From Apus apus (lineage: Eukaryota): a stretch of DNA of 64,000 nucleotides. Below are positions 2,876-47,908 of the stretch, piece after piece. The notes under the pieces are model-generated. The model was given only the letters and a program-made list of their open reading frames with translations, was not told where the DNA came from and ran no database searches. The number at the start of each line of letters is the position of its first letter. Within the stretch, counting starts at the first letter, position 1. Location of the stretch: the NCBI RefSeq assembly GCF_020740795.1, contig NC_067310.1:493940-557939 (forward strand). The letters are read 5' to 3'. The translations under genes were made by a program, and so were the position numbers.

Positions 2876-3737
2876 TGTCGCAAGCCGGTACCGGGGGCTC
2901 CCGGCTGTCAGGATCCTTTTGCGACTGCCCCTCCGATGTGGAGGGGTTTGTGAATGAGCCCGAGGGTCACACGCGGCGCTGCCTCTCACGGAGGAACGGC
3001 CACCGTGGGACCGTATTTCAGGGGGGGAGTTAGAAAGCACCCCCACCCCACCACGCTCAGAGATTGCCTCTAAAGCCAAGGTTTGCTCCACAAACTAATA
3101 GGTTTATTAAGGGTTAACACAAACCGAGGGGTGATGTTCGGGGACAATACAGGTGTGAATGGCTACCAGGGATATCAATATGTATGTGGTGAGAAAGTGT
3201 CCTTTAGGGAGGCAATGCAAAGGTGCTTTTAAGGGAGAGGATTAAGGACCAAAGGGAGGAGGGAAGGAAACCCGACGCCGGTCCTCCTTAAGAGGTCGCA
3301 CTGTGTGTGCAAGTATGAGGGGAAAGGAATATGTGTGTGTGTGTGTGTGTGTGTGAGGTGATGTTCCCCTCCGGCTTGTCCAGCGTCGTTTGGTGGCCGG
3401 AAGGCAGGACGGCAGGTCCGTGGTGTCGGAGGGGCAGCCTCTCGGCAGCGGGTGCAGCGGCCGCTGGTTTCCCCTCCAGCGGCAGCAACACGGGGAGGGG
3501 GCTCCGGCCCCGACCCCAGGGCTTGGGACCCCGGCACGCTCGGCGCTGAGGCTCAGGCTGGACCCGGGGCAGGCAGGCAGGCAGGGTCCCAGCACCAGTG
3601 TCCGCAGCAGGGGGGTGTCCCAGGCAGAAAGCGTCCGAACGGGCCTCAGGGAGGAGGGAAGGGCCCACCTGCTGCCCTCGCCCCTTTGATACCCCCTGAC
3701 CCACCTGTCCAGTCAGTGTCACTGTCCAGGGCCAACG
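2876..3737 (-). mobile_element. 5' LTR of the provirus. It is 5'-truncated in U3 by about 220 bp relative to the full copies elsewhere.
   Basis: Homologous to the LTR copies at 27368-28479 and 47909-49015. It contains TTAATAAACC and the (GT)n. Homology stops at about 3737 where the block A junction begins. Confidence 0.75.
3331..3356. repeat. (GT)n microsatellite inside the LTR.
   Basis: Reads gtgtgtgtgtgtgtgtgtgtgtgtg. The same tract is seen in other LTR copies at about 27990, about 48530 and 49803. Confidence 0.95.
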
Positions 3738-6533
3738 AGCATCCATGACCCCTTGCTGCTTCCTTTACCTTTTCCCCAGCGTTGCCCTGTGGAACACAGC
3801 CCTGGAGCCGGGCGGCACAGGGACCTTGACCCCGAGGGGCAGCTTCAGCAGCTCCGGGTCCATCAGCCCAGCAGCTCCTAGTCCTGCTGCTGCCTTCTGT
3901 GCCCGGCCGAGGAAGAGAGAGACACTCGAGGCGCCAGCTCCTCAGCCTCCTGCCCGACAGGGGCAGGACAGGGCAGGTCCCACAGCAGCCCCCGCCATGT
4001 CCCAGGCTCCCCGGCTGAGCCCTCTCCCTCCCTGCTCACCTCTCTCCTCTGTCCTGCTCCACTCGCTGGGTCACCCTTGGGGACACCAGCAGGGAGACAG
4101 TGCTCCATGGCTCCTTCCAGAGCTCTGGCACAGCTGCCCCCCTGCACTGCAGGCCCAGGCTGACAGCTCCCCTTTCATCAGGACTCCAGGAGAAGGGTCG
4201 AGCTGCCGAGGACTTCCGTGCCTCTCTTACCACACAGGCCTCCCCAGCACATGGTCCCAGCCCCCCAGCTCACCCCCTCTTTTCTGACAGGGGCTGCTGG
4301 GGCTGGCCATGGAGAAGCTCAAAGCAGCATCACCCTGTGCCGTGCTCCTGCCTGGGCAGGGGGCTTCGGAGCCGCCGGAGGGACAGGCTGCCTGGAAAAC
4401 CCTGGGCACATGGAGAGGAGGCTGATCTCAGTGTCCCGTCTCTCCTGCCTGTTCCATGGGGTGGGTGCTCTTGGGACAGGCCTTCCTGAAGGCTCTTTGG
4501 GGGTCAGTGGAGGCCCAGGCTGACAGATCCACTTTAATGTGTACTCAACGATCCGTCTTGCAATGGTCCTTAGAGGCGAACCCTGGTCCAAGGCTGCTGC
4601 TGGCTTTGGCTGCCTTCCTCCCTCAGACTTTGCCTCTGCTGCTCCAGGAATCTCCGGGAGAAAGGTTCTGGCCTGGCAGGCTCTGCTCTGTCTTCACTGG
4701 GCAGCCCAGGAAAGCTGCCCCAGGGCCATTGTCACTCAGCAGCCAGAACAACCACCCTCCCCAGCACTGGCCTCTCACCACGGCTCACAGAGATTGCTTG
4801 TCCCTCCCACAGGGACACATTGTCAGCAAGGGCAGGAGTCCATGTTTGCCCTGTGCAGACAAGACCTGAGCATGAGCATCATGTGCGGGTGGTGAGATGA
4901 ACCCCAGAGAGCACAACCCCCCAGCTCTTCCTGGGGGGCTGTGAGGGTCTGTAGGACAGACAGTGTCTCCAGGTCACTCCACGTTGACAGCAATGTCCCC
5001 TGGAAACCACCTGGATGCAGCTCCGGGATGTGCTTCCTTGAACCAAGGGCCACCAGCCTGTCCCAGCTGCTGGCCACCATCTCTGCCCACAGGGCTGTGA
5101 GTCCTATTTTGTCAACCTGTTGCACCTTGGAGTGTTTCCTGCTGGTGGCCACAGCCTGCCTTTAGGGCCGGGCTTGCTGTCACCTGCCTCTGTCTGCAGG
5201 ATTCATGGGCTGGAAGGTCGGTATTGAGCAGGCAATGGCACCTGGGTCAGGGGTGTTTAGGTTTGAGTGATTCTGGCCTGGTGTTGAGCACCTGTAAGAG
5301 GAACTAGAGAGAGGGTCCTTAACTCCCTGAAAGACCCAGGAGGGTCGGAACAGGGATGGGTCAATATTCCCCCTGTTCCTGCCATACTCTACAAAAGCAG
5401 GAGAACCAGAAGCTCAGGCCCTTTCCTTCCTCTGCCTCCTTCCTTTCTGCTGCTGCTGCTGCCTGGGGATTCTTCAGTTCACCAGGTGCTCTCTGGAATC
5501 CAACTCCACCAGGTGCTGGGAGGAGCTGTGGACCCCTCTCCTGAAGTGGCCTTGCTGCAAGGGACCCTCACCCACCCATTCCTGCCATCAGCGAGATGGG
5601 GTTTGTATGTGTTTGTGTATCAGTGCAGAGACCTGTTCTCCCCCCCAACCTGTTCCTCCCTTCCCAGTGTTAGAGTGAATTCCTTCCTGTTTCCATTTCC
5701 AGCCCTTCAGTCTCTCTTCCTTATTCCACTTCTGTTTTCCCTTGGGAGGCTGGAGAAGGGTAATAGGGAGCAATTCTGCCTTCTGTGGTTCACCCTGTCT
5801 GTTTAAACCAAGACACAAGGTAAGAATTGATTCAACACATAGGATGTCAGGCTCAGCATATCAGCTCAGGGGTTGCTGGGGTGGGGAATTGTCGCTCGGA
5901 AGAATCACGTGCACGGTGTCCCAGGAGATGAGCAAGTGTCTTGTGCAGCACTCTGTCTTGTCTTCTATTAGTATCACTGGTATTGCTGTTTCTTCAGGCC
6001 TTCTCTTGTCGAGGGAGGTGACTCTCCCCCTCTGCTCTGCTGTGGGAAGACCGTAACTGCAGTGCTGTGTTCAGTTCTGGGGTGCCCAAGACCAGAATGG
6101 CATGGAGCTCCTGGAGGGAGTCCAGAGGAGGCCACAAGGATCATTGAAGGGCTGAGAGAGTCCTGGTTAATATCTGTATCAATGACCTAGAGAGCTGAGT
6201 GGTGCAAGTGACATGGCTGGGGGCCAGGATGCCATGCAGAGCAGCTAATTTGGGTTACTGGACAGCCAAGGACTCAGAGCAAGTGTTAGAAACTTTTATA
6301 ATGGATCAAGAGGAAACAAATCAGGTCTGTGTCTCAGTTGTAGCGACACAAGTGCAAACATCTTTGCAGGAACAAAACCAAGCATGACAATAACAACAGC
6401 AGTAATGAGATATAAAATAATAATATTAACAATAAATAAAACAACAACAAACCCCAACAGAGTACAATACCAAAAAAATCTAAAAACAAAAACCAAAAAA
6501 TAAACAAAAAGGGTGCAATGACATAAAGTGGAA

Positions 6534-7490
6534 TCACTTCTGTAAAGAGGCTTTAAATCTCTCACTCTTGACCAATGAAGAAATCACTTTCCTGAGGGCG
6601 TCCTTGAGCTCCTGGTTCCTCATGCTGTAGATGAGGGGGTTCACTGCTGGAGGCACCACTGAGTACAGAACTGCCACCACCAGGTCCAGGGATGGGGAGG
6701 AGATGGAGGGGGGCTTCAGGTAGGCAAACATGGCAGTGCTGGTGACCAGAGAGACCACAGCCAGGTGAGGGAGGCAGGTGGAGAAGGCTTTGTGCCTTCC
6801 CTGCTGAGAGGGGATCCTCAGCACGGCCCTGAAGATCTGCACATAGGACACCACCATGAAGACAAAACAGCCAAATGATAAGGAGACACTGAACACAAGG
6901 ATCCCCACTTCCCTGAGGTAGGAGTGTGAGCAGGAGAGCTTGAGGATCTGGGGGATTTCACAGAAGAACTGTCCCAGGGCATTGCCCTGGCAGAGGGGCA
7001 GTGAAAATGTACTGGCTGTGTGCAGCAGAGCACTGAGAAACCCAGAGGCCCAGGCAGCTGCTGCCATGTGGACACAAGCTCTGCTGCCCAGGAGGGTCCC
7101 GTAGTGCAGGGGTCTGCAGATGGCCACGTAGCGGTCATAGCACATGATGGTGAGAAGGGACCACTCTGCCCCAAGGAAGACTAAAAAGAAAAAGAGCTGT
7201 GCAGCACATGCTGAGTAGGAGATGGCCCTGGTGTCCCAGAGGGAATTGGCCATGGCTTTGGGGAGGGTGGTGGAGATGCAGCCCAGGTCGAGGAGGGAGA
7301 GGTTGAGCAGGAAGAAGTACATGGGGGTGTGGAGGTGGTGGTCCCAGGCGATGGTGGTGATGATGAGGCCGTTGCCCAGGAGGGCAGCCAGGTAGATGCC
7401 CAGGAAGAGCCATAAGTGCAGGAGCTGCAGCTCCCGCCTGTCTGCGAATGCCAGGAGGAGGAACTGGCTGATGGAGCTGCTGTTGGACAT
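6534..7490 (-). CDS. Olfactory receptor of the OR14-like avian-expanded clade. Intact, 318 aa.
   Basis: Protein begins MSNSSSISQFLLLAFADRRELQ and includes GNGLIITT, PMYFFLLNLSLLD, MCYDRYVAICRPLHY, KAFSTCLPHL and PAVNPLIYSMRN. Single exon. I chose the in-frame Met at 7490 as the start. Confidence 0.9.
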   Translation of the reverse strand: MSNSSSISQFLLLAFADRRELQLLHLWLFLGIYLAALLGNGLIITTIAWDHHLHTPMYFFLLNLSLLDLGCISTTLPKAMANSLWDTRAISYSACAAQLFFFLVFLGAEWSLLTIMCYDRYVAICRPLHYGTLLGSRACVHMAAAAWASGFLSALLHTASTFSLPLCQGNALGQFFCEIPQILKLSCSHSYLREVGILVFSVSLSFGCFVFMVVSYVQIFRAVLRIPSQQGRHKAFSTCLPHLAVVSLVTSTAMFAYLKPPSISSPSLDLVVAVLYSVVPPAVNPLIYSMRNQELKDALRKVISSLVKSERFKASLQK

Positions 7491-10194
7491 CTGCTGCCTC
7501 TGGGCATGGAGACCTCTCCATGGAAGAAAAGACAGGTAGAATTTAGAGCAGACTTCACACAAAAATATGTACTTAATTGCTGTTAGAGACGCTCAAACTG
7601 CCTCTTGTCTTTCACAAAATACTTTTGCAGGTCCTTTTTTCTGCAGTCTGGTTGTTGCTGGATTTTGATCCCCGAGTGAGCTGTGAGCTCTGGAGGAGTC
7701 AGTCCTGCCCTGCAGCAAGAGGTTGAAAGGAAGAGGGGGTGACCTCAGACTAAATCTGTTTGAGATATCAAAGAACTTTTCAGCATTTCTCCTCCAGACT
7801 CACCCAACTGCAGAACAGAGCTGAGGGGATTTTGGTTTGTGTCTTCTGCTCTAGTTTCCCCACCACACCTGAGGAAAGTTTTTAAGGCAGAAGCCTTGGC
7901 CTTTCCACTGCTCTCCAAGTGAAACCTTGAAGGTGCTGAGAAGCAGAGGGACTGTGCCTTAGTGCAGAGTGAGGACAGCTGCTCTGTGCATCAGTCCTGC
8001 TCTCAGCTGCCCTGAGCTGGCACCTCTTTCAGCTGCAGGACCCATCACACACAGATGTTCTCCTGAGGAGAAACTGAACATGGCTGAGAGCAGAGCAGTC
8101 AGATTGTCCAGTGCAGCTCTCCCAGCCCCTCAGCCCATCTCATTCTCCCTGAGCAGGATCTCAGCTCTGCCCTCCCAGCCAGGGACACACAGGGCTCACT
8201 GCAGCTGCCCACAGACAGACCAGGAGCAGCATTTCCATGGCCTTGGCATGGACATGTCTTCTCCATGGGGCTCCCAGAAAACACAGAGGTGCCACAGGAG
8301 AGCTGTGCCCTTCTGGAGGGCAGCGTGCCACTCAGCAGGACCCTGCAGGGGAAGAGCCCAGTATCTCAAAGATGGGGTATCCTGACAGGAGGGTCAGCTC
8401 AGCCCCAGCCCCACACCCTGCAGTCCTCACAGCCCCAGATATCAGGCCATTTGGATGCTTTTCCTCCATGGACACAATGGCAGGACAGGACACCCAGCAT
8501 CAGTGTCTGAGCGGCACCCAAATCATCACCCCCCACCCCAAGGAGAAGAAGGAGAAGAACAAGGGCAGCAGGGGCAGGAGGGGAACATGCCAAAGTGCTG
8601 CTGCTGAGAGAGTTGGGACAGGGACACAAAGTCAGAGACTCGAGCATTTCTGCTCTGTGGTGCTGGGGTGTCTGGGAAGGGAACTCAGGACTAAGTCCCC
8701 GTGATATGAAGGGGTGGGAGTTCTACAGAGGGGGAGAGGAGAGCAGGGAGTTGCTCTTGGGAAGGCATCAGCCCTGCAGGGATGGCAGGAAGGTGTCCAG
8801 ATCCCCCTTCCCATGACTTGCAGGCAGCAGCTCCCTCTCCCTCGCTGCCCATGTCTGTGCTCTCTGGAGTTGTCTCTGCTGGGAGCTGCTTCTCTGTCTC
8901 CATGTGCCCTCCTTAGCAGGGCTCCCAGAGCCCATCCCACCCGCCGGGTGCTCAGCTCTGCCTGGAAGACACCCCTTGTAGCAGGGACCTGCCAGGGGCA
9001 GGTCTGGGTGTGCAGGGGCTCAGCAGCAGCTCAGACAAGTCCCCACTAGCTCTGGGGTCTCAGTGCCTTCTCCAGAGGGGAAAGCTCAATTCTCATCTCC
9101 CACTGCCCACCCAGCTCACCAAGAGTACAGAACTCAAAGCACAGACTCCTTTTCTTCCAGGTAAATTCTGTCTCTCTGTGCTGCTTCAGAAGGAACATCT
9201 GCAAATGCCCTGGGGGTGATCTGGAGCTGTGAGGAGTCCTGACCCACACAGCACCCTCTCAGAAGCAGAAGAACCCATCCTTGCCCTGCCAGGGACTACT
9301 AATTCTGCACAGAGCTTCTCCCCACAGTCCTTGAAGAGCTCCCCGGGCAGGCTGAGAGCTGCCCCTGGCAGGCAGCACAGCCCCTGCCCCAGCACACAGC
9401 CCCTCAGCTGCAGGACCCTGCTCTGACAACAGCCCTGGGCACCCCTGCCTGCACCCCTGCCTTCACCAAGATCCAAAATGGCACAACAAGAGCCACCCAC
9501 ACCAAACCTCTGACACACCTCACACACCCCATAAGCTGTGGCTGTGCCAGCTGCAGGAGATGCCTCCAGGAACTGCACCCACCTTGCCCTGCACCCACAG
9601 ACTCACCGTGCCAAGGGCTGCACAGATGTCTCCTCCACTCAGCTCTCACTCACCCCCAGTCCTGAGCACCTTTAAGCTCTCTCTGCCTTGCCCATCTCCC
9701 TCAGACCCCCTGGCAGTGTCCTTCTCCCTGCTGGGCCAAGCAGAGGAGCTGCTCCTGGGCAGAGCTGTCTCTCTGCAGCACTGCCCACTTGCCAGCAGCT
9801 CTCTCCATCCCAGGAGCCCAGCTCAGAACCTTAATGAGCCCTCTGGTGGCTTTGCTGCTGAGCCCATGAAGCTAAGACAGGGGGAGGAAGCTGATGAAAC
9901 CTCTGCAGAAGTCAGAGCCCAAGTGCAAAGTTTCTGTCAGTGTTGATGGGTCCCAGTGAGGGACAGGAGTGAGGAAGCGTCCCCAGGGTGTGGGTAGAGC
10001 AGGAAAGAGGAGGCAGGGATGGCAGGTGGGGAAGAGGAGGGTCAAGGTGGCTCTGGAGCTGAGTGACCCTGGGTGTGTTTCATGACTGCAGAGGACCAAG
10101 CCCTGTCCCCCTTCACCAAAGGTGCCAGCCCCTGGGAAGGGAGATCCTGTCCCTCACTCACTAACTTTTCAGGCTCTCCCTGGGACACTGGGAT

Positions 10195-10530
10195 AATAGA
10201 ATCATAGAATCATAGAATCCTAGGGGTTGGAAGGGACCTCGAAAGATCATCTAGTCCAACCCCCCTGCCAGAGCAGGGTCACCTAGAGTACATCACACAG
10301 GAAGGCATCCAGGCGGGTTTCGAATGTCTCCAGTGAAGAAGACTCCACAACCTCTCTGGGCAGCCTGTTCCAGTGCTCTGTCACTCTCACAGTAAAAAAA
10401 AATTTTCTGATATTCACCTTAAACCTCCTATGCTCCAATTTGTATCCATTACTCCTTGTCCTATCACTGGTCATCACTGAAAAAAGCTTAACTCCATCTT
10501 CTTGACATTCACCCTTTACCCTTTGTGGAG
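10195..10530 (-). mobile_element. CR1 LINE 3' fragment.
   Basis: A (TAGAATCA)n tail at 10198-10222 is the reverse complement of the CR1 ATTCTRTG 3' repeat. The 10283-10477(-) ORF matches the CR1 ORF2 C-terminus ([16 protein letters not shown]). Confidence 0.85.
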
Positions 10531-11224
10531 CTGTGCAATGCCAAGGGCAGGACTATGGCTCAACACGTCCCCAGCCCATTCACATGGACAAGGAGGCTCT
10601 GAGACCCCAGTGCTGGGCGTTGCAGTTTCTCCCCATGGGCAGCAGTGGCAGAGATAGATGTCTTCAGCAAATCATGAAGAGCTTGGCTCTGGCAGGGGGC
10701 TTCCCTCTTTTCCACATCCCTCTGTCATCTTGACCAGGGCCTGTCCTACACTTTCCTCTCCTCTCTACCTTTTGCCCTCTTGTCCCTGTTCCTCTACCCA
10801 GCTTCCCCACCTTGCTGTCCCCTTCCTTTCCTGACATCTTTATGTCCTCCCTGCACTAAGCCTTGGGCTGACCCAGGCTCCTGCTGGGTGATGTGGTGCA
10901 CCACAGCACTGCCCCTGAGTGATATTTCTTTCTCCTGCTGTCCTCTCTGGACTTGCCTAGCTCCACTTGAGGCACTGTTTCTTGCACAAGGTGTTTCTGT
11001 GGTGGAGAAAAGCTCCAGTATGTCTCAACTCAGCCCTCAGTCCCTCCCAGGCCACTCCTCTCCTGTCCAGTCTGCAGAGCCCTGCGCCCAGGGTCCTCAG
11101 CCTCTGCAGACTGGACAAGGGGTTGAGTTCTCCAAAGCCCACTTTGGGAGATCTCTGGGCTCTCTGCACGCTTGTCACAGATGAAGACATGGTGGTCATA
11201 TGGTAAGAATCACAGAGTCACCTC

Positions 11225-11560
11225 CCTTGGTAATGACCTGAAAGATTCACAGAGTCCAACCGTCCATGAAGAAAGAGGGAGTGAGGCTCTTTACCAAGGC
11301 CTGCAGTGGCAGGACAAGGGATCATGGCTTTAAACTGAAAGAGGGGAGATTGGGAGTTGATAGAAGGAAGAAATATTTTAGGATAAGGGTGGCAAGAGAC
11401 TGGAATATGTTGCCCAGGGAAGTGGTTGCCCCATCCCTGGAGGTGTTCCTGTTCAAAGTTTTGAGCAACCTGAACTTGTGTGAGACGTTCCTGCCCATGG
11501 CAGGGGCTTTGCATTAGATGCACTTTTAGGTCCCTTCCAACCCAAACTGTTCCAGGAGTC
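11225..11560 (+). mobile_element. CR1 LINE 3' fragment.
   Basis: The 11266-11517 ORF contains FKLKEGRLGVDRRKKYFRIRVARDWNMLPREVV. The fragment ends with the ...gtcccttccaaccc terminus. Confidence 0.85.
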
Positions 11561-12039
11561 TTTCAATCCAGTGTTCCCAACTCCTCCACAGGGCTGCCAA
11601 TACCCACATACACCTTAGGGGCATTTTAACCTGACCTGGTTGTCCTGGTTTGAGCCAGGATGAAGGCAATTTTCCTTTTACTGGTCTTTTTTCTTCAGTG
11701 ATCACCCTTTTAACTAGCAGCAAGTTCTCCAGCCAGTGAATTGATAGTGCTGGAATGTTTATGTTACTGCTGAGATGCCAAGGTCACTTTGCTCTCCTTG
11801 TTGAATCCATGGCCTCAGATGCCAGAGGACGAAAAGAGTCACATCTGTAACCCTCCCATGGGTGGAGTGGACTAGATGGGCAGCAAAACTGACCAAAGTG
11901 TTCCATTCGATCTATCTGTGTAAGCTCAGTATAAGGTCAGAGAAGACAAGTCCCTTCCTGGGGACACCACTCGTGACTGGCCACCAACTGGACTGAACTC
12001 CATGGAATGCAGCTCTTTGGGACTGCCCATCCTACCAGC

Positions 12040-13450
12040 TCTTTATCCAGCAAAGCCTGTGCACAGCCAGGCCACGAGCAGCCAGCTTCTCCAGGAGAAT
12101 GCTGTGGGAAACCTGCTCAAAGGCTTTGCTAGAGCCGAGGCAGACAACATCCACAGCCTTTCCCTCCTCCAGTGAACAGGGCACCTATCACAGAAGGAGA
12201 TGAGCTTAGTCAAACAGGACCTGCCCTTCATGAACCCACTCTGACTGGGCCCCATCCCCTGGTTGTTCTCCATGTACTGCAGATGATCTGGTACTCAGGC
12301 ACTGTGGATGATCTGCCCCACCAGCTTCCCTGGCACTGAAGTCAGACTAACAGGCCTGGAATTTCCTGGATCACCCTTCCAGCCCTTCTTGTATGTGGGG
12401 ATAATATTGGCTGATTTCCAGCCTGCTGGTCCCTCCCCAGTCAGCCAGCACTGCTGGTAAATGATAGAAAGTGGCTTGGTGAGCACCCCTGCCAGCTCTT
12501 TCAGCACTCTTGGCTGCATCCCATCTGGCCCCATACATTTGTGCACATCTACACGAGTGAGCAGGTCACTGACCATCTCCTCCTGGATTTGGGGGGATTG
12601 CTCTGCTCCTGGTCCCTGTCCCCTGGCTTAGGGAGGCATTCCCTCAACATGATTGGTCCTGATACTAAACACTGAGGCAAAAAAAAGTCATTTAGCACCT
12701 CAGCCTTTTCCTCCTCATTGATTATGATGTTTCCTCTTGCATCTCATAGGGGATGGAGGGTCTCCCTGTTCTTTCTTTTGCCATTAATATATTCATAGAA
12801 CCTTTCCTTGTTATCCTTTACCATAGAGGCCAGATGAACTTCTAGCTGGGCCTTGGACCTTCTAATTCCCTCCCTGCAGATCCTCACAGCATTTTTGTAG
12901 TCACCATCAGTGCCCTGCCCCTTCCTCCAAAGGCCACAGATTCTCTTTTTCTCCCTGAGCTCCAGCCAAAGCTCCCCGTTCAGCCAGGCTTGTCTCCTCT
13001 GCTGCAGGCTTGCCTTGGAGCACATGGGGATGAGCTGCTCCTGTGCCTTCAAGACTTCCTCCTTGAAGAGCATCCAGATTTCCTGGACTCCTAAACCCTT
13101 CAGAACAGATTCCCAAGGGACTCTGGCAATCAGGGTGTTGAACAAGGTAAAGTTTGCCCTTTGGAAATCAAGGGTGGCAGTTTTGCTGCCCCCCCCTCCT
13201 GGCATCTCTAAGAAGAGAGAACTTCAAACCTTTGTGGTCACTATGCCCAAGGTGGCCTCCAACTCTCACATCTCCTACCAGCCTTTTCCTGCTCACAAAG
13301 AGCAGGTCTAGCAGGGCACCTTGCCTGGTTGGTTCACTCACCAGCTGTGTCTGGAAGTTCTGTTCGACACATTCCAGGAACCTGCGGGACTGTTCCCTCT
13401 CTGCTGTGTTGTAGTTCCAGCAGACATCAGGGAAGTTGAAGTCCCCCACG
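12040..13450 (-). mobile_element. CR1 LINE internal fragment covering the endonuclease C-terminus to mid-RT. Truncated at both ends.
   Basis: ORFs contain GDFNFPDVCW...SDHKGLKF (endonuclease), PGNSRPVSLTSVPGKLV and GFMKGRSCLTKLISFCD (RT). Confidence 0.85.
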
Positions 13451-13462
13451 AGAATGTTATAG

Positions 13463-13680
13463 GTGAATCATGAAATCAATTTGCTGATCAAATGTGAATG
13501 TATATGGTTGAATGTTAAAATGCAATGTTTATTAAAATGCTGGAAGTTAAGTTTGTTATATGTTGGAAATTATGTTAAATGCTGGTTGTTAAATGTTAGA
13601 AGTTATGTTCATGAATGTTATGGTTATGTGAGGGTTAATGTTGGAAGCTATACCCTGTCATGTATCAAACCTTAAGTTAT
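13463..13680. repeat. AT-rich tandem repeat with a unit of about 20 bp (aatgttagaagttatgtt-like).
   Basis: Visible periodic atgtt / aaatg / ctgg units. Confidence 0.6.
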
Positions 13681-13734
13681 ATGACATTTTGAGTGACTGC
13701 GCATGTCCTGAAGAACGGCAATCACCAGGCAGAA

Positions 13735-13850
13735 GATGGAATTTTCCAAGAAGGGGCAGAGCTTTGCAACGGCGGGAAAAAGGATGCAGAGTATGGAATT
13801 TTCCAAGGAGAGGCGGAGCCTTGCACCGGCGGGAAAAAGAACTCTATAAG
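13735..13850 (+). repeat. Direct repeat of about 57 bp, two copies.
   Basis: ggaattttccaag(a/g)aggggc(a/g)gagc(t/c)ttgca(a/c)cggcgggaaaaag occurs twice back to back. Confidence 0.8.
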
Positions 13851-26200: not shown

Positions 26201-26289
26201 CGATGGAACAGACATCTCTGGTATTCAGGGGCCCTGAAACACCTGCTGCAATCAAACAAGCCCAGCAGTTCCAGCCTCCCTGCTTTGGA

Positions 26290-31845: not shown

Positions 31846-31846
31846 T

Positions 31847-38311: not shown

Positions 38312-38329
38312 TATCAACAAAAGGAGGGG

Positions 38330-38600
38330 TAAGGAGAACTTCTATCCCTTATTAGATGCAGCTGGACCAGGGAGGAGGAGAAGGCTGAGGTGCTTCATGC
38401 CTTCTTTGCCTCAGCCTTTAGCAGCAGGACCAGTTGCTCACTGAGTACGCAGCCCCCTGAGCTGGAAGGCAGGGATGGGGAGCAGAATGGAGCCCTCATC
38501 ATCCCAGAGGAGATGGTCAGTGACCTGCTGCACCACTTGGACACACACAAAGCTATGGGGCCAGATGGACCCACCCAAGGGGGCTGAGGGAGCAGGCAGA
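38330..38600 (+). mobile_element. Short CR1 fragment from the pre-RT region of ORF2.
   Basis: Contains AFFASAFSSRT and LLHHLDTHKAMGPDG, similar to 55481-55762(-). Confidence 0.6.
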
Positions 38601-38949
38601 AGTGTCATGCCCTGATCCTGCCCTTGGCATTGCACAGCTCCACATCCCAGTGCCCTGTGGAGAGCTCTGAGGGGTGAGTGAGGGACAGGATCTCCCTTCC
38701 CAGGGGCTGGGGGTCAGGGCTGGCACCTTTGGTGAAGGGGGACAGGGCTTGGTCCTCTGCAGTCATGAAACACACGCAGGGTCACTCAGACCCAGAGCCA
38801 CCTTCATCTTCCTCCTCCCCACATGCCATCCCTGCCTCCTCTTCCCTGCTCTGCCCACACCCTGGGGACGCTTCCTCACTCGTACTGGAGCCGCTTGGGA
38901 AGTGATGGGCACTGAAGCTCCTCCTGGCGCCCAGATTCCCAGTGCTGAG

Positions 38950-39480
38950 CTCCATGTGCCAGAGTCACCTTTCTCCTGCCCATCATGCCACCCGTGTGAC
39001 TGGCAGGACATGGACTGCTTTAATCACCCAGCAAGCTCCAATAGGAAGGCCTAATCATCCAGGTATTGTGGAAGCAATTCCAGACTGGCCAGAAGGCACA
39101 GACTTTGGAATGCCAGCACAAGAAGTGGTGAGACGGGCTCAAGAAGCTCTACCATGTGATCATCTCCCAGAGACTGAGGAACACTTTGCTCTTGTCACCG
39201 ATGGCTCCTGTCGTCTTGTAGGGAGCTGCCGGCAGTGGAAAGCTGCCCTGTGGAGTCCTGCACCAGCAGTTGCACAAGAGCTGAAGGAGAAGGTGAATGG
39301 AGTCAGTTTGCAGAGGTCAAAGCCATCCACCTGGCTCTGGACATTGCTGAGTCAGAGGGGTGGCCCAGGCTCTATCTCTAAACTGACTAGTGGGTGGCAG
39401 CAAGTGCCTTGTGGGGTTGGCTAAAGCAGGGGCAGCAGAACAACTGGAGTGAAAAGGTCAAGTTCTCTGGGTTGTGTCAC
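38950..39480 (+). pseudogene. ERV pol fragment covering the RT tether and RNase H. It is frameshifted.
   Basis: One frame reads FALVTDGSCRLVGSCRQWKAALWSPA. The next frame reads EWSQFAEVKAIHLALDIAESEGWPRLYL*TDSWVAASALWGWLKQ. Together these give the RNase H pattern TDGS...A(E/Q)xKAIxLAL...YTDS. Confidence 0.6.
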
Positions 39481-40619
39481 TGTTTGACTCAGGTCTGACA
39501 ACAACTCTCCTGATCCCCTTCCCCTCCCACCCAGGTAGGGAAAGAGAGAGAGAAAAAGAGAGAGACTTGGCTGGATTGAAAACTAAACTACACAACGTTA
39601 ATTAAACACTAATGAGAAAAGAAAATATATACAATTACATATGTTTAGTTATCTGCAAAAGCCTCTCTCCTCCCCGCACCCCAGCAACTCCCACAGCATC
39701 TCCTGAGCTGGAACAGTCCCGAGAAATCCCAAAGGGCTGCTGGAGAAAGCGGAGAGTGATGAGGGTCAGGAGAGCTGGAGCCTGGGGGTCCACGGGGAGG
39801 GAGGGACGGAGTCCTCCCCGGACGCTGGCCACAGGTGGAGAAGGGAAGAAGAAGCAGGAAGGAAGTTGTCTTGTGTGATTTCTGTGCTTCCCCTGAGCTC
39901 ACGTAGCTCTCTGGAATGGAAGATCTCAGGCCAGTTTTGCTGTCTGTCTCACTCAGCCTCCTCCGGGGGGGTCAGAGATCTCCCTGTACCGTCTGAGCCG
40001 GCAGAGTGAAGGTGCAACCTTGAAGCCCCAGCAGTTAGAGAAACATTGCACTGTTGTCAGTGCTAGTTGGAACACTCTGCTGCTAGTTAAAAGAACGCTT
40101 CCTGAAGGGGAAAAAAAAAGAGTAAAAGGAAAATTGCCCTAATCCTGGTTCAAACCAGGGCTATCTCCCAGCTCTGGATCTGAATGGCAGGTTTCAGTAG
40201 GGATGCTTCTGCTGAATGTTTAGAATGTTCTGTGGATGGTAGAACAAGATGTTGTTCCACTCACTGCCACTCCCCCACAGGCAAGGCTGCTGCCACCGCT
40301 GCTGCTGCTGCAAAGACCAAGGCCACTTGCACTCCATCCAGTGAGTAAAGGTTCATCCTGTCATCAAGGGAAAGGCAAAGACAACTGGTCCCAGACCTTA
40401 TCCCTGTCTGAAATCTCCACAGCTTCCACAGGACCAGGAAGAGAGTGATGGAGAAAATACTTCTCAAGCAGATGGAGGAGCAGGCCCTTCTCAAGCAGAT
40501 GACAATGATGACCTTGTCCAACCTTTCTCTCTAAAGGAACTGCACCTCATGAGAAAGGACTTCACCCTCCATGAAGATGAGCCACTTAGTTGGTTTCTCA
40601 GACCTCAGTACCTCAGTAC

Positions 40620-40830
40620 CTCAGACATCACAATGGGGCAGTAGAGCCTTAAATGGGATCTATGGCCATGACATCACAATGGGGCAGTAGAGCTTTAAAT
40701 GGGATGTATGGCCAAGACATCACAATGGGGCAGTAGAGCCTTAAATGGGATGTATGGCCATGACATCACAATGGGAGCAGTAGAGCCTTAAATGGGATGT
40801 ATGGCCGTGACATCACAATGGGTGGCCAGT
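40620..40830. repeat. Tandem repeat of about 45 bp, roughly 5 copies.
   Basis: catcacaatggggcagtagagccttaaatgggatgtatggccatgaca repeated. Confidence 0.85.
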
Positions 40831-42715
40831 TTGGGAAGCAGGGTGATGTCCACAGCCTGCAGGGAAAGAGCTGCAGGAGTCAGACACTGTAGGACATCCT
40901 GTGGTGGGGACAGCTGGGGGCAGAGCCATGGCTGAGAGCCCCCAGCCCAGGTCTTGATCTCCTGGGCTGTGGAGCTTCTCTCTGCAGCTGCCTACGAGGA
41001 GACACCTTCTCATGAGAGCAGAAGGACTCCATGGGCTCCTCATCACAGCCTGTGAGCCTGAGAAAGAGTGTATCCCAGTCCTGCTCCAGGCACTGCACAT
41101 CCCCACACCCCAGTGCCCGGGCAGAGCCCTGAGCAATGTGTGAGGGGCAGGATCTCTTCTCCCACGGCCTTTGGGTCAGGGCTTGGACCTTGGAATCATC
41201 TCACCCAGCCAGGCTGACTCCACCTCAGAGCCATCTTGTCCTTGCCTTTGCCTGCCTGTCAGCAGTTTGCACCTGACTCTGGCTTCTGGAGAGGTTTCTT
41301 CAGCTTCACTCCTCATCAGAGCCACCTTGCCATGGCCTTTCTCTGCCTGCCATGAGTGCTTCCAGGTTCCTGCTCTAAGCAGCCCCTGTGCAGCCTTTCC
41401 TGGTAATGGTCCTCCCTGGGACCCATTAATGCTGCAGAAAGTTGGGAGTGTGCAGCTGAGCCTGCCTTGTGGAGAGGAGCCCCAGCAGGGGCTGAGGGCA
41501 CTGCCTGCAGGCAGCAGGGGAGAGGAGCCAGGCAGGGAGAGAGGATAAAGGCAGGCAGGAGGGGCAGGACGGCTGAGAGCTACTGAAGGAGACATCTTCA
41601 CAGCCCTGGGCATGGTGAGTGTCTCTTTCCATGCCCCTCTGTGCGGGGAAGAGGAACCAGTCCTGGAGCTGCTGGCTTGGACAGGAGACCCAGACTCCTG
41701 CAGCTTTCCAGGGAGAGAGGAACAGGTTTGTCAAGGCCCCTGAGAAAGTGCCTTCAGCCTTTCCTCTGCCTGCAGGAAGCACTGCCCTCAGCTCTGTGCT
41801 CTCCCCAGGGCTGATCTGGTCTCCTCTTCAGGAGTGGCCAGCACAGAGCTGCCCCTGGGCAGGGTCCTGCTGCCAGGAGGGCTCTGCAGGGCAGAGCTGA
41901 GCACAGGCTGGGTGGGATGGGGCTGTGAGCAGGGCCAGGGAGGAGAGGTGGGGACAGTTTCCAGCAGGAGCAGCTGCAGTCAGGTCCCTTCCCCGCAGCA
42001 AGCCCTTGGTCTCCTCTGCTCCACAGCAGAGCTCCTGGCTCCAAGGCACTGGGATCTCAGCCTGAGTCACCTGCTCAGCAGCTTGATCCCTGCGGAGGAG
42101 AAGTGTCCAAGTGCCACCTCAGGGTGCCTGTCCTCCCTCACTGGGAGCATCAGGGCATTTCTCCATCTGGCCCTCCTGCCTCTGCTGTCCTTGCCCTTTC
42201 CCTCAGGCTCCCTAAGGACAAGGGTGTCTAAGGTGCAGCTCAGACACCGATTCTGCAGGAGCTCTCAGGCAGCTGTGGCCAGGGCAGCAAAACCGCTGGG
42301 CCCAGCCCAGCTGAGGTTCTCTGGACATGCTGGGCTGGAGGGCTTGGGACCAGCCAGCTCTGCTGGTGGCACCACAGCTGTAGGAATTTCGTGGAGGTTC
42401 TCCTACAGGAATATGCACAAGTGGATCACAGATGAGGAAAAGAGGGTATTTTTGAAGCTGACATACTTTTCCCAGCTCCCCCCTGCTGTGGAGCAGGGAC
42501 AACTCCTTGGGAGCTCAGCTCCTCACAGCACACTTGACCCACATGTCCAGAGCTCCAGCCAGGGAGATCCAAGAAGGTTCTGTAAGAAGGAGACAATGTC
42601 TGTTTTCAGAGGGTGGGGTGTGAAGGGAGGGAATGGGAAGAGATTTCCTCAGGGCTGTCCTGACTTGTGAATGTGCTTTCCTCCTCTGGCAGCACCTCAT
42701 AAGGAAAGGGCTGGG

Positions 42716-43630
42716 ATGTCCAACAGCAGCTCCATCAGCCAGTTCCTCCTCCTGGCATTCGCAGACAGGCGGGAGCTGCAGCTCCTGCACTTATGGCTCT
42801 TCCTGGGCATCTACCTGGCTGCCCTCCTGGGCAACGGCCTCATCATCACCACCATCGCCTGGGACCACCACCTCCACACCCCCATGTACTTCTTCCTGCT
42901 CAACCTCTCCCTCCTTGACCTGGGCTGCATCTCCACCACCCTCCCCAAAGCCATGGCCAATTCCCTCTGGAACACCAAGGCCATCTCCTATTCAGCATGT
43001 GCTGCACAGGTCTTGTTCTTTTTATTCTTCATCATAGCAGAGTGGTATCTTCTCACCATCATGTGCTATGACCGCTACGTGGCCATCTGCAGACCCCTGC
43101 ATTACGGGACCCTCCTGGGCAGCAGAGCTTGTGTCCACATGGCAGCAGCTGCCTGGGCCTCTGGGTTTCTCAATGCTCTGCTGCACACAGCCAGTACATT
43201 TTCACTGCCCCTCTGCCAGGGCAATGCCCTGGGACAGTTCTTCTGTGAAATCCCCCAGATTCTCAAGCTCTCCTGCTCACACTCCTACCTCAGGGAAGTT
43301 GGGATTCTTGTGGTTAGTCTCTTTTTAGGTTTTGGCTGTTTTGTCTTCATGGTGGTGTCCTATGTGCAGATCTTCAGGGCCGTACTGAGGATCCCCTCTC
43401 AGCAGGGAAGGCACAAATCCTTCTCCACCTGCCTCCCTCACCTGGCCGTGGTCTCCCTGGTCACCAGCACTGTCCTGTTTGCCTACCTGAAGCCCCCCTC
43501 CATCTCCTCCCCATCCCTGGACCTGGTGGTGGCAGTTCTGTACTCAGTGGTGCCTCCAGCAGTGAACCCCCTCATCTACAGCATGAGGAACCAGGTGCTC
43601 AAGGATGCCCTCAGGAAAGTGATTTCTTAA
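42716..43630 (+). CDS. Olfactory receptor of the OR14-like avian-expanded clade. Intact, 304 aa.
   Basis: Paralogue of OR1 with all motifs present: MCYDRYVAICRPLHY, KSFSTCLPHL and PAVNPLIYSMRNQ. The stop is at 43628-43630. The upstream region is the same as for OR2. The downstream region is the same as for OR1. Confidence 0.9.
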   Translation: MSNSSSISQFLLLAFADRRELQLLHLWLFLGIYLAALLGNGLIITTIAWDHHLHTPMYFFLLNLSLLDLGCISTTLPKAMANSLWNTKAISYSACAAQVLFFLFFIIAEWYLLTIMCYDRYVAICRPLHYGTLLGSRACVHMAAAAWASGFLNALLHTASTFSLPLCQGNALGQFFCEIPQILKLSCSHSYLREVGILVVSLFLGFGCFVFMVVSYVQIFRAVLRIPSQQGRHKSFSTCLPHLAVVSLVTSTVLFAYLKPPSISSPSLDLVVAVLYSVVPPAVNPLIYSMRNQVLKDALRKVIS

Positions 43631-43989
43631 TTGTTTAAGAGTGAGAGATTTAAAGCCTCTTTACAGAAGTGATTGCACTTTATGTCATTGCACCCTTTTT
43701 GTGTGTTTATTTTTTTGTTTTGTTTTTAGATTTTTTGGGTATTGTACTCTGTTGGGGTTTGTTGTTGTTTTATTTATTGTTAATATTATTATTTTATATC
43801 TCATTACTGCTGTTGTTATTGTCATGCTTGGTTTTGTTCCTGCAAAGATGTTTGCACTTGTGTCGCTACAACTCAGACATGGACCTGATTTGTTTCCTTT
43901 GATCCATTATTAAAGTTTCTAACACTTGCTCTGTGTCCTCGGCTGTCCAGTAACCCAAATTAGCTGCTCTGCATGGCATCCTGGCCCCC

Positions 43990-44200
43990 AGCCATGTCAC
44001 TTGCACCACTCAGCTCTCTAGGTCATTAATACAGATATTAACCAGGACTGGTCCCAGGACGGACCCCTGAGGGACACTTGTCACCATCTCCATCTGGACA
44101 CTGAGCCATTCACCACTGCCCTCTGGATCTGACCTTCTCACCCATTCCTCATCCCCTGAGCAGTCCACACATCAAATCCTTCTCTCTCCAGGTTAGAGAG
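43990..44200 (-). mobile_element. Old diverged CR1 RT fragment in the OR 3' flank.
   Basis: gtcattaatacagatattaaccaggactggtcccaggacggacccctgagggacacttgtcacc is similar to the reverse complement of the CR1 FINDLD region at 54830-54900. It is also copied at 29870-29940. Confidence 0.5.
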
Positions 44201-47200
44201 AAGGATGTTTTGAGGGACCACGTCAAGGGCCTCACACAATCCAGGGAGGTGACACCCATGGCTCTTCCCTTCCCAATGATGCAGTCACTCTGCCTCCCTA
44301 TTTGCAACTGGCCTTATAACTTTGAGCACACACCACTGGCTCCTGGGACACTCCTTGAACACCCAGGCCGTTCTTCTCAGGGTCACTGCTGAGTTGCTCA
44401 GCTCTCAGCCAGCCCTCATTCTGGGGATGATTTTGCCCCTGGCAAAGGACTGACTGCTTCTCTGTGTAAAACTCTGTGAGGTTTCTTCTGACTGAATCCC
44501 AGAGTTTAAGAATCGAGAAAACAACACGGAGAGGTGCTGTGCTGGACCTTGATCTCACCTGCAAGGAAGGGCTGGTGAGGGATGCCAAGCTCAAGGGCAG
44601 CCTTGGTTGTAGCCAATATCGACTTGCGACACCAGGTTAACCCCATTGCTCCTCACTCCATGACTCCATTATAGAAGTTTCTAACACTTGCTCTGAGTCC
44701 TTGGCTGTCCAGTAACCCAAATTAGCTGCTCTGCATGGCATCCTGGCCCCCAGCCATGTCACTTGCACCACTCAGCTCTCTAGGTCATTGATACAGATAT
44801 TAACCAGGACTCTCTCAGCCCTTCAATGATCCTTGTGGCCTCCTCTGGGCTCCCTCCAGAAGCTCCATGCCATTCTGGTCTTGGGCACCCCAGAACTGAA
44901 CACAGCACTGCAGTTACGGTCTTCCCACAGCAGAGCAGAGGGGGAGAGTCACCTCCCTCGACAAGAGAAGGCCTGAAGAAACAGCAATACCAGTGATACT
45001 AATAGAAGACAAGACAGAGTGCTGCACAAGACACTTGCTCATCTCCTGGGACACCGTGCACGTGATTCTTCCGAGCGACAATTCCCCACCCCAGCAACCC
45101 CTGAGCTGATATGCTGAGCCTGACATCCTATGTGTTGAATCAATTCTTACCTTGTGTCTTGGTTTAAACAGACAGGGTGAACCACAGAAGGCAGAATTGC
45201 TCCCTATTACCCTTCTCCAGCCTCCCAAGGGAAAACAGAAGTGGAATAAGGAAGAGAGACTGAAGGGCTGGAAATGGAAACAGGAAGGAATTCACTCTAA
45301 CACTGGGAAGGGAGGAACAGGTTGGGGGGGAGAACAGGTCTCTGCACTGATACACAAACACATACAAACCCCATCTCGCTGATGGCAGGAATGGGTGGGT
45401 GAGGGTCCCTTGCAGCAAGGCCACTTCAGGAGAGGGGTCCACAGCTCCTCCCAGCACCTGGTGGAGTTGGATTCCAGAGAGCACCTGGTGAACTGAAGAA
45501 TCCCCAGGCAGCAGCAGCAGCAGAAAGGAAGGAGGCAGAGGAAGGAAAGGGCCTGAGCTTCTGGTTCTCCTGCTTTTGTAGAGTATGGCAGGAACAGGGG
45601 GAATATTGACCCATCCCTGTTCCGACCCTCCTGGGTCTTTCAGGGAGTTAAGGACCCTCTCTCTAGTTCCTCTTACAGGTGTTCAACACCAGGCCAGAAT
45701 CACTCAAACCTAAACACCCCTGACCCAGGTGCCATTGCCTGCTCAATACCGACCTTCCAGCCCATGAATCCTGCAGACAGAGGCAGGTGACAGCAAGCCC
45801 GGCCCTAAAGGCAGGCTGTGGCCACCAGCAGGAAACACTCCAAGGTGCAACAGGTTGACAAAATAGGACTCACAGCCCTGTGGGCAGAGATGGTGGCCAG
45901 CAGCTGGGACAGGCTGGTGGCCCTTGGTTCAAGGTAGCACATCCCGGAGCTGCATCCAGGTGGTTTCCAGGGGACATTGCTGTCAACGTGGAGTGACCTG
46001 GAGACACTGTCTGTCCTACAGACCCTCACAGCTCCCCCAGGAAGAGCTGGGGGGGTTGTGCTCTCTGGGGTTCATCTCACCACCTGCACATGATGCTCAT
46101 GCTCAGGTCTTGTCTACACAGGGCAAACATGGACTCCTGCCCTTGCTGACAATGTGTCCCTGTGGGAGGGACAAGCAATCTCTGTCAGCTGTGGTGAGAG
46201 GCCAGTGCTGGGGAGGGTGGTTGTTCTGGCTGCTGAGTGACAATGGCCCTGGGGCAGCTTTCCTGGGCTGCCCAGTGAAGACAGAGCAGAGCCTGCCAGG
46301 CCAGGACCTTTCTCCCAGAGATTCCTGGAGCAGCAGAGGCAAAGTCTGAGGGAGGAAGGCAGCCAAAGCCAGCAGCAGCCTTGGACCAGGGTTCGCCTCT
46401 AAGGACCATTGCAAGACGGATCGTTGAGTACACATTAAAGTGGATCTGTCAGCCTGGGCCTCCACCGACCCCCAAAGAGCCTTCAGGAAGGCCTGTCCCA
46501 AGAGCACCCACCCCGTGGAACAGGCAGGAGAGACGGGACACTGAGATCAGCCTCCTCTCCATGTGCCCAGGGTTTTCCAGGCAGCCTGTCCCTCCGGTGG
46601 CTCCGAAGCCCCCTGCCCAGGCAGGAGCACGGCGCAGGGTGATGCTGCTTTGAGCTTCTCCATGGCCAGCCCCAGCAGCCCCTGTCAGAAAAGAGGGGGT
46701 GAGCTGGGGGGCTGGGACCATGTGCTGGGGAGGCCTGTGTGGTAAGAGAGGCACGGAAGTCCTCGGCAGCTCGACCCTTCTCCTGGAGTCCTGATGAAAG
46801 GGGAGCTGTCAGCCTGGGCCTGCAGTGCAGGGGGGGCAGCTGTGCCAGAGCTCTGGAAGGAGCCATGGAGCACTGTCTCCCTGCTGGTGTCCCCAAGGGT
46901 GACCCAGCGAGTGGAGCAGGACAGAGGAGAGAGGTGAGCAGGGAGGGAGAGGGCTCAGCTGGGGAGCCTGGGACATGGCGGGGGCTGCTGTGGGACCTGC
47001 CCTGTCCTGCCCCTGTCGGGCAGGAGGCTGAGGAGCTGGCGCCTCGAGTGTCTCTCTCTTCCTCGGCCGGGCACAGAAGGCAGCAGCAGGACTAGGAGCT
47101 GCTGGGCTGATGGACCCGGAGCTGCTGAAGCTGCCCCTCGGGGTCAAGGTCCCTGTGCCGCCCGGCTCCAGGGCTGTGTTCCACAGGGCAACGCTGGGGA

Positions 47201-47226
47201 AAAGGTAAAGGAAGCAGCAAGGGGTC

Positions 47227-47560
47227 ATGGATGCTCGTTGGCTCTGGACAGTGACACTGACTGGACAGGTGGGTCAGGGGGTATCAAAGGGGCGAGGGCA
47301 GCAGGTGGGCCCTTCCCTCCTCCCTGAGGCCCGTTCGGACGCTTTCTGCCTGGGACACCCCCCTGCTGCGGACACTGGTGCTGGGACCCTGCCTGCCTGC
47401 CTGCCCCGGGTCCAGCCTGAGCCTCAGCGCCGAGCGTGCCGGGGTCCCGAGCCCTGGGGTCGGGGCCGGAGCCCCCTCCCCGTGTTGCTGCCCCTGGAGG
47501 GGAGACCAGCGGCCGCTGCACCCGCTGCCGAGAGGCTGCCCCTCCGACACCATGGACCTG
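47227..47560 (+). mobile_element. LTR fragment that forms part of block A'. It is truncated at 47560, where the flank of the 45-bp repeat begins.
   Basis: Homologous to the reverse complement of 3400-3737. It carries the same 5' breakpoint (ggggtcatggatgctcg) as the provirus LTR. Confidence 0.8.
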
Positions 47561-47908
47561 CCGTCCTTCCAGGAAGACTTGAGTCAGACAGTGGGACTCT
47601 TTTCAAAACTAGTCTAGTGACTGGTCCTCGTTGGTTCAGGCTTCAGTACTTCATATGGCCTTGTGTGGCATGGATGGCTATGACATCACAATGGGGCAGT
47701 AGTGCCTTAAATGGGATGTATGGCCATGACATCACAATGGGAGCAGTAGAGCCTTAAATGGGATGTATGGCCATGACATCACAATGGGTGGCCAGTTTGG
47801 GAAGCAGGGTGATGTCCACAGCCTGCAGGGAAAGAGCTGCAGGAGTCAGACACTGTAGGACATCCTGTGGTGGGGACAGCTGGGGGCACAGCCATGGCTG
47901 AGAGCCCC

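Follow-up and report, generated by a model that had tools for sequence, protein, structure and literature searches.

How does a gene come to have the upstream region of one paralogue and the downstream region of another? The question is raised by a 64,000-nucleotide stretch of the Apus apus genome (contig NC_067310.1 of assembly GCF_020740795.1, positions 493,940 to 557,939; hereafter the window), in which three olfactory receptor (OR) genes of OR14-like type, OR1, OR2 and OR3, sit within duplicated blocks of opposite orientation. A first-pass annotation had described an imperfect palindrome, with blocks A (3290-7490) and B (17839-22190) on the left mirrored by B' and A' (40236-47720) on the right, and had proposed unequal exchange after an inverted duplication. 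We found inverted segmental duplications with OR14-like paralogues at this locus, and the right arm is probably a multi-step segmental-duplication mosaic in an avian OR14 (gamma-c) cluster.

Inverted segmental duplications with OR14-like paralogues

Self-comparison of the window by BLAST returned long inverted matches between its left and right parts. A and A' match over 2906 bp at 99.14% identity (3403-6305 against 47570-44665), extended by 6159-7491 against 44049-42715 at 95.96%; B and B' match in four pieces, 17893-18407 against 43600-43086 (95.3%), 18405-20161 against 43019-41264 (1757 bp, 98.46%), 20252-20788 against 41265-40699 (92%, with the gaps falling in a 46-bp minisatellite) and 21838-22260 against 40587-40165 (97.4%). 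The same inverted arms were recovered by a second, independent repeat finder, so that the long inverted diagonals expected of the self-comparison are borne out, and the block edges given in the first-pass annotation proved accurate to ~50-150 bp (the start of A was 110 bp off and the end of A' 150 bp off). As a chance baseline we scored the best non-self match in five first-order Markov resamples of positions 1-50300; this reached at most 30 bp and 39 bits, against the observed 2906 bp and 5118 bits. Altogether, 47% of positions 1-50300 have a second copy within the window at 85% identity or more. Taking as an OR unit an upstream block, coding sequence (CDS), downstream block, long terminal repeat (LTR) and minisatellites, the window holds at least five or six full or partial unit copies; of the OR copies, three are oriented to the left and two to the right. 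The arms and partial copies are as follows.

3403-6305: young core of arm A, 99.14% identical to 47570-44665
6009-6158: CR1 reverse transcriptase (RT) fragment in arm A
6159-6305: 147-bp unit in arm A
18709-22260: arm B, including its distal piece 21838-22260
18709-20161: OR2 upstream core of arm B
20789-21837: B-only segment, 1049 bp
22261-40164: spacer, with copies C and D, CR1 elements and a GC-rich block
26551-30462, plus strand: partial copy C, with a B-only-like piece, the 46-bp minisatellite, an LTR (27576-28479) and a 15-bp minisatellite (28480-29208)
29207-29515, 29749-29894 and 29895-30462: distal part of copy C, with an OR 3' fragment, downstream sequence, a 147-bp unit and a segment named X, in that order
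31847-33108, plus strand: partial copy D, with a 208-bp piece, an LTR with an internal deletion and the 15-bp minisatellite
40165-42715: arm B' (OR3 upstream), without the 1049-bp B-only segment
44665-47567: young core of arm A', 0.76% diverged from arm A, with a shortened LTR (47221-47567) at its end
47563-49444, plus strand: right extension, paralogous to 27025-29208 of copy C; it holds a 46-bp minisatellite module, the 208-bp piece, a full LTR (48117-49015) and the 15-bp minisatellite

Both major matches lie above the thresholds for segmental duplications or low-copy repeats (at least 1 kb at 90% identity or more), at 2906 bp and 99.1% and at 1757 bp and 98.5%, and their content is composite: the A core joins a CR1 fragment, unique sequence and a host-to-LTR junction common to both copies, and the B core consists of OR upstream sequence and the 5' part of the CDS. 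This composite content and the common host-to-LTR junction rule out A and B as copies of transposable elements.

The term palindrome, on the other hand, does not describe the arms, which reach 95-99% identity, lack collinearity and span less than the spacer. On sex chromosomes, ampliconic palindromes combine collinear arms, identical at ~99.9% or above, with a spacer far shorter than the arms. Those of the primate Y and X and the bird Z and W resemble the window in being inverted repeats with multi-copy genes and possible arm-to-arm conversion; they differ in that the window's arms are 95-99.2% identical, split by large indels and shorter than their spacer. The indels are four in number, of 10,395 bp, 1049 bp, 762 bp (X and one 147-bp unit) and ~896 bp, and break collinearity; divergence runs from 0.76% to 4.4% by block; and the arms stand ~18 kb apart, across a spacer of 17,904 bp, compared with a right arm of only ~7.4 kb.

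Could the inverted arms be an assembly artefact, a mis-join or false duplication of one locus produced by haplotypes or by chimeric long reads? On bird microchromosomes, OR and satellite regions rich in repeats are in general hard to assemble; nothing in the sequence points to such an error here. The arms differ by 0.8-1.5% and by private indels, each has its own unique flank, and the inverted copies lie 18 kb apart rather than forming a foldback with zero spacer; divergence is graded among five LTR copies and among copies C, D and the right extension, and the junctions are biologically typical, with microhomology and repeat-bounded indels. We therefore regard an artefact as extremely improbable.

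OR1, OR2 and OR3 are class-A G-protein-coupled receptors of the OR type (7tm_4), each with a single uninterrupted coding exon of the ~310-aa kind. In a search of 5.8 billion proteins, the nearest were Apus apus OR14J1/14A16/14C36-like proteins at 90-93% identity, followed by proteins of hummingbirds, chimney swift and other birds at 83-87%; with the 7tm_4 matches, these relatives confirm the OR14-like identity first read from the three open reading frames (ORFs). Judged by such named best matches rather than by phylogeny, the window's ORs are assigned to the OR14 family, or avian gamma-c.

6534-7562, minus strand: OR1 ORF (Pfam 7tm_4, E 1.5e-50)
6534-7490, minus strand: OR1, intact OR14-like gene, 318 aa from the MSNSSS start, MCYDRYVAICRPLHY motif present
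17839-18753, minus strand: OR2 ORF (Pfam 7tm_4, E 3.5e-37, match split into two stretches)
17839-18708, minus strand: OR2, OR14-like, with an in-frame 69-bp deletion (alignment gap opposite OR3 43017-43085)
42671-43630, plus strand: OR3 ORF (Pfam 7tm_4, E 1.8e-48)
42716-43630, plus strand: OR3, intact OR14-like gene, 304 aa, with its 5' ~550 bp near OR2 and its 3' part in an older middle block
15603-15845, minus strand: OR fragment (tblastn)
29207-29515, plus strand: OR 3' fragment in copy C (tblastn)

Three age classes in the right arm

Aligning the three OR loci together with 0.8 kb of sequence to either side confirmed that OR3 is of OR2 type upstream and of OR1 type downstream, as the first-pass annotation had it. 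Upstream, OR3 is 96-100% identical to OR2 and ~40% identical to OR1, the level of random sequence; downstream, it is ~96% identical to OR1 and ~35-40% identical to OR2. The three-way homology begins at the ATG (within 1 bp) and stops ~30 bp before the OR3 stop codon. OR3 thus takes its flanks from two paralogues, with the switch inside shared CDS homology: it is a hybrid gene, probably made by homologous exchange or gene conversion within the CDS. OR1 and OR2 themselves are direct repeats that share only the ~886-bp CDS, and they are separated, as had been noted, by ~10 kb of CR1-rich sequence.

7492-17886: left-only interval, 10,395 bp, with no right-arm match of 85% or more apart from repeats
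9967-10519, 11921-13205 and 15073-15485: CR1 fragments of this interval (tblastn; ORF 12744-13205)
13986-14423: inverted 438-bp copy of OR2 upstream sequence, 98.9% identical to 19819-19382

The simplest account of these flanks would be a single inverted duplication of the left array (A, OR1, 10 kb, OR2, B), followed by one unequal crossover between the CDSs of OR1' and OR2' that deleted 10.4 kb and left OR3 as a chimera. It predicts the OR2-type upstream and OR1-type downstream regions, and because OR1 and OR2 share only a CDS in direct orientation they have the geometry required for such a deletion; the right arm is, moreover, the derived one at two other places, where its LTR is shortened and the B-only segment is lost. 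The CDS itself carries some signal of this kind. Over 816 bp, 12 informative sites are OR1-like and 9 OR2-like, and the best single breakpoint, at 43329/43338, gives p = 0.044 by the maximum chi-square test: of the OR2-like sites 8 of 12 precede it, of the OR1-like sites 8 of 9 follow it, and 5 of the 21 informative sites are discordant. Another 16 sites are private to OR3, however, with synonymous divergence (dS) between the CDSs of 0.06-0.07, and in the 5' CDS OR2 is nearer to OR1 than to OR3, all of which weighs against a single crossover.

Divergence by block also speaks against a single event. The A core differs from its counterpart by 0.76% (21 substitutions in 2756 bp) and the B core, 18709-20161 against 42715-41264, by 1.45% (21 in 1452), with 2.6% in the distal piece of B, while the OR3 3' part and 420 bp of non-coding sequence downstream of it, although contiguous with the A core on the OR1 side, are ~4-5% diverged from OR1 (4.4% in the non-coding stretch). 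Between the CDSs, divergence is 3.8% for OR1 and OR3 and 3.6% for OR2 and OR3, and dS is four to nine times the flank divergence. Positive selection was considered as a source of the high CDS divergence and ruled out: the ratio of non-synonymous to synonymous divergence (dN/dS) is 0.42-0.58, and with dS itself raised to 0.06-0.07 the excess does not come from selection on amino acids; the non-coding sequence downstream is equally diverged.

Followed along the right arm, the change points are sharp, at ~43263 and 44665. Measured against the OR2 side there are few mismatches up to ~43263 and then 18 per 250 bp; measured against the OR1 side, divergence is uniformly 4-6% across 42966-43965, non-coding sequence included, and at 44665 exactly the low divergence returns. 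By age, the right arm falls into three classes: B', A' and, between them, an older middle block (~43264-44664).

43264-44664: older middle block, with the OR3 3' part, downstream sequence, the proximal 147-bp unit and X, ~4-6% from the OR1 side
43903-44049: proximal 147-bp unit
44050-44664: X, a CR1-derived 615-bp segment missing from the left arm and present in copy C
44665-44811: distal 147-bp unit, the start of A'

The middle block differs from the left arm in structure as well as in age, for X and a second 147-bp repeat are present on the right arm and missing from the left. The junction between the 147-bp unit and X is common to the middle block and copy C (29749-30462; 111 of 111 bases identical), and the 147-bp unit and X part is ~2% diverged between the two. 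A CR1 RT fragment reads across this boundary, so the adjacency of the 147-bp unit and X is the older one, and the derived one is the junction of the 147-bp unit with the A core, which occurs in the left arm and distally in the right. The likeness to C is limited to the 147-bp unit and X part; copy C was rejected as donor of the OR3 3' part, as over 43400-43600 it comes no nearer than OR1 does, and over 43600-43800 it is far more distant.

The clean single-crossover chimera, weakly supported by the CDS test, is therefore contradicted by the block ages, and a single duplication would need at least one later conversion or insertion over the middle block, at which point it becomes a multi-step history; as it stands we consider it unlikely. 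Of the exchange first proposed, the geometry of direct ~886-bp CDS repeats fits, whereas its single event fails on the block divergence, on X and the second 147-bp unit, on the mosaic of CDS sites and on the microhomology at the outer end of A'.

This outer end lies within an LTR. The LTR is a five-copy module whose copies align to the same ends (TGGGG...GCGACA) and contain an AATAAA signal. The host-to-LTR junction is the same in A and A'; beyond it, the left arm runs on through the full ~877-bp LTR, a primer-binding-site (PBS)-like 18-mer and gag-like ORFs, and A' stops 347 bp into the LTR, where a 5-bp microhomology, GTCCT (47563-47567), joins it to a different module. A microhomology junction of this kind, lying inside the LTR, indicates non-homologous joining. 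On its inner side A' is bounded by X and a 51-bp filler and on its outer side by a minisatellite module, neither with a counterpart beside A.

These boundaries bear on a further possibility, namely that the inverted units are all old paralogues (~4-6% diverged) whose A and B cores were recently homogenised by arm-to-arm conversion tracts of 2-3 kb. Divergence is indeed sharply block-wise, 0.8-1.5% against 4-6%, and gene conversion is pervasive in gamma-c OR clusters (bioRxiv 10.1101/2025.11.14.688425). Conversion tracts must end in homology, yet A' is bounded by non-homology on both sides; and A and A' share one LTR insertion site, with the LTR cut off in A', which marks a duplication breakpoint rather than a conversion boundary. 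We judge this explanation distinctly unlikely, less probable than the single duplication.

At the places where polarity is readable, it marks the right-arm copy as derived. One such place is the truncated LTR; the other is the B-only segment, which is partly kept in copy C, so that its absence from B' is a loss in B'. The ~1.1 kb that B was said to carry in excess of B', with a third copy elsewhere, amounts to 1049 bp, of which only 21062-21597 has a third copy, at 26551-27086 (inverted, 97.4%); a further piece lies at 47563-47624. The site of loss in B' adjoins the 46-bp minisatellite.

In the multi-step history that we favour, with its order and mechanism inferred from the observed blocks, identities and junctions, B' (40165 to ~43263) would be a recent inverted copy of the OR2 upstream region and the first ~550 bp of the CDS. 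The middle would be an older block, already in place and built like copy C (OR 3' part, downstream sequence, 147-bp unit, X). A' would be a recent inverted copy of the block distal to OR1, inserted between X and the unit that follows through non-homologous, microhomology-mediated joining and cut off inside the LTR. The switch from B' to the middle block would have arisen by homologous exchange or gene conversion, because it lies inside the CDS, the only sequence common to all units, and would have produced the hybrid OR3.

Several points weigh against this history. The single-breakpoint test of the CDS is weakly positive, as the simpler model predicts; the A and B cores, at 0.76% and 1.45%, differ by only ~2 standard errors, and both young blocks may be one event. 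Either direction may hold for the 10.4-kb difference, the middle block may be a resident paralogue or may have been imported from an unseen donor, and the analysis as a whole covers the sequence as assembled.

Receptor sequences, spacer and neighbouring repeats

Among the three receptors, OR1 and OR3 carry MCYDRYVAICRPLHY, the MAYDRYVAICxPLxY-type motif at the boundary of the third transmembrane segment (TM3) and the second intracellular loop (IC2). The OR2 deletion takes out the end of TM3 and the MCYDRYVAI (DRY) motif, so that OR2, though its frame is open, is probably a pseudogene. Its private changes T238I, A273P and S289G hit columns that are invariant in 20 Apus paralogues, the set on which we defined hypervariable and invariant columns; the private states of OR1 are confined to hypervariable columns.

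The CDSs are nearly identical over nucleotides 1-300 in all three ORs, and their differences concentrate in TM3, TM5 and TM6 columns: 14 of 23 Apus-hypervariable columns vary among them, compared with 10 of 272 other columns (Fisher p = 4e-12). This is the gamma-c partition, with a homogenised 5' region (CDS nucleotides 1-300) and diverse TM columns. All three window ORs (6537-7490, 17842-18708, 42716-43630) read LLHLWLF where 20 of 20 Apus apus paralogues examined read LLHFWLF, a lineage-wide fixed difference in the homogenised N-terminal region of the kind expected under concerted evolution.

Searching 99 OR14 proteins patch by patch, we found that the nearest paralogue differs from patch to patch, a hint that the ORs may be mosaics. 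The OR2 TM6 patch matches one protein (P0038) exactly; the nearest-neighbour search of the same proteins gave no exact donor for the TM3 or TM5 patch of any copy, nor for the OR3 TM6 patch. One might imagine a cassette system, in which OR2 and the fragments 15603-15845 and 29207-29515 are kept as donors of TM3, TM5 and TM6 patches through short conversion tracts. If true, it would create ligand pockets in new combinations, in the way that chicken immunoglobulin genes are diversified from pseudogene V segments, and the inverted arms would protect or renew the donors; we hold this to be highly unlikely.

Other candidate genes were looked for in the window. The Rfam and tRNA scans gave no match there. 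No Pfam match was returned either for the 278-aa ORFs that lie upstream of OR2 and of OR3 or for the long ORFs found at 33-35 kb, and we rejected them as genes and treated them as chance ORFs of GC-rich sequence. The latter lie in a GC-rich block of the spacer (33000-35000; 64-66% GC, CpG observed/expected 0.29) with overlapping long ORFs of up to 530 aa on both strands, which are probably compositional rather than a sign of a gene or CpG island. Over most of the spacer CpG observed/expected is 0.03-0.3, rising to as much as 0.57 in the kilobases with LTRs and minisatellites.

Copies C and D lie inside the spacer in right-arm orientation. Copy C (27025-28479) is 2.6% diverged from 47563-49015, and 31847-32294 of copy D is 97.3% identical to 27368-27815 of copy C. 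The spacer also holds a CR1 element and, in an AT-rich stretch, an old inverted repeat (22819-23428 and 23982-24777; 73-75% identity, arms of ~350-600 bp, ~550 bp apart), which is either two old transposable-element copies or a relic of an earlier inversion junction near the orientation switch.

36626-37969: CR1 RT ORF in the spacer

In the left-only interval, the 438-bp piece at 13986-14423 corresponds also to OR3 upstream sequence (41606-42042); it may represent a young duplication of small size, or else a repeat or an upstream element common to OR units. An older fragment of the OR2/OR3 upstream piece, 75% identical, lies at 8894-9006, 1.4 kb upstream of OR1.

Two minisatellites recur. The 46-bp minisatellite (2.6-4.3 copies) lies at four boundaries of mosaic blocks, 20666-20795, 27120-27247, 40624-40822 and 47666-47788, the place where B' lacks 1049 bp among them, and may be a preferred breakpoint. 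The 15-bp minisatellite, (ATGTCACCCATTATG)n, follows directly after three LTR copies, at 28480-29208, 32538-33108 and 49017-49444; in copy C it adjoins the shortened OR fragment. All 16 occurrences in the window of the cAMP-response-element (CRE)-like palindrome TGACGTCA fall inside this minisatellite, together with many TGATGTCA and TGACATCA variants.

Just outside the left arm lies an endogenous-retrovirus (ERV)-like element that extends past the left edge of the window.

573-2765, minus strand: two gag-like ORFs of the ERV-like element (from the ORF list)
2858-2875: PBS-like 18-mer TGGTGTCAGAAGTGGGAT, 2 nt after the terminal CA of the LTR
2876-3752, minus strand: LTR of the ERV-like element, its outer 350 bp forming the end of arm A

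The gag-like ORFs run from 2765 to 1683, with a coiled coil, and from 1577 to 573. For 1683-2765, Pfam yields coiled-coil noise only; homologues of 573-1577 are multi-copy uncharacterized bird proteins, some of them fused to rve (integrase) or RVT_1 (RT) domains. The PBS-like 18-mer looks complementary to the 3' end of a tRNA-Leu. Beyond the right extension are three large satellite arrays (50485-54178, 56190-57881 and 60489-63811) of 7/14-bp units (TAGGGTTAAGGGTC) with higher-order periods of 98-126 bp; they have a strong G-over-C skew, and the units are telomere-like, not canonical TTAGGG. A young CR1 (54176-55551), 98% identical to 36681-38062, interrupts the arrays.

Known systems and the growth of OR clusters

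The closest known counterparts are the gamma-c clusters of birds. Gamma-c (OR14-family) ORs of birds were described earlier by Steiger et al. 2009 (PMC2758906), and have since been shown to be mosaics, shaped by gene conversion, of homogenised and diverse (TM3, TM5, TM6) subregions; their clusters often lie on dot chromosomes (Driver et al., bioRxiv 10.1101/2025.11.14.688425). In the complete chicken genome, OR amplicons of hundreds of copies lie in repeat-rich heterochromatin of dot chromosomes, including an amplicon on chr29 (PMC9974502). The window shares with these clusters its OR14-like proteins, paralogues that are near-identical outside the TM3, TM5 and TM6 patches, homology between units that is confined to the CDS, surrounding CR1s, ERVs and satellites, and a CDS mosaic consistent with gene conversion. 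We see no essential difference; what the window contributes is one orientation switch resolved, with its junctions, to the base.

In humans, the OR low-copy repeats REPD and REPP at 8p23.1 mediate non-allelic homologous recombination (NAHR; Giglio et al. 2001, as cited in PMC9199198). They resemble the window in being inverted, OR-containing segmental duplications, substrates for inversion and for inverted duplication with deletion, and a setting for hybrid genes made by exchange. The two differ in scale, with REPD and REPP repeats of hundreds of kb around a spacer of ~5 Mb and window arms of 3-7 kb around a spacer of 18 kb, and for the window the comparison is one of sequence only.

The outer end of A' recalls a different process. 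In fork stalling and template switching and microhomology-mediated break-induced replication (FoSTeS/MMBIR), and in rearrangements of the duplication-triplication/inversion-duplication (DUP-TRP/INV-DUP) type, complex duplications form through microhomology-mediated template switching or end joining. The likeness lies in an inverted duplicated segment inserted at a 5-bp microhomology beside pre-existing repeats; the difference is that the window has clear microhomology at one junction, its other boundaries lying in repeats (the 147-bp unit and the OR CDS).

The locus is thus real but ordinary for the OR gene family, in which gene conversion, the amplification of gamma-c ORs and NAHR at OR repeats are already described; the remark in the first-pass annotation that OR amplicons undergo gene conversion and copy-number change restates established knowledge rather than a new inference. 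By analogy with such systems, the inverted arms can serve as substrates for spacer inversion and for conversion between arms, as can the direct OR repeats for unequal exchange. For annotation, OR2 and OR3 share a promoter-side block, and A with A' and B with B' will confuse read mapping and copy-number calls; the locus could also serve for testing inversion polymorphism in swifts. It opens no new question beyond the usual birth-and-death and concerted evolution of OR clusters, of which it is a base-level example: an OR14/gamma-c cluster growing by inverted and direct duplications, with a hybrid receptor, inactivation by an in-frame deletion, repeat-bounded indels and a microhomology junction within an LTR.

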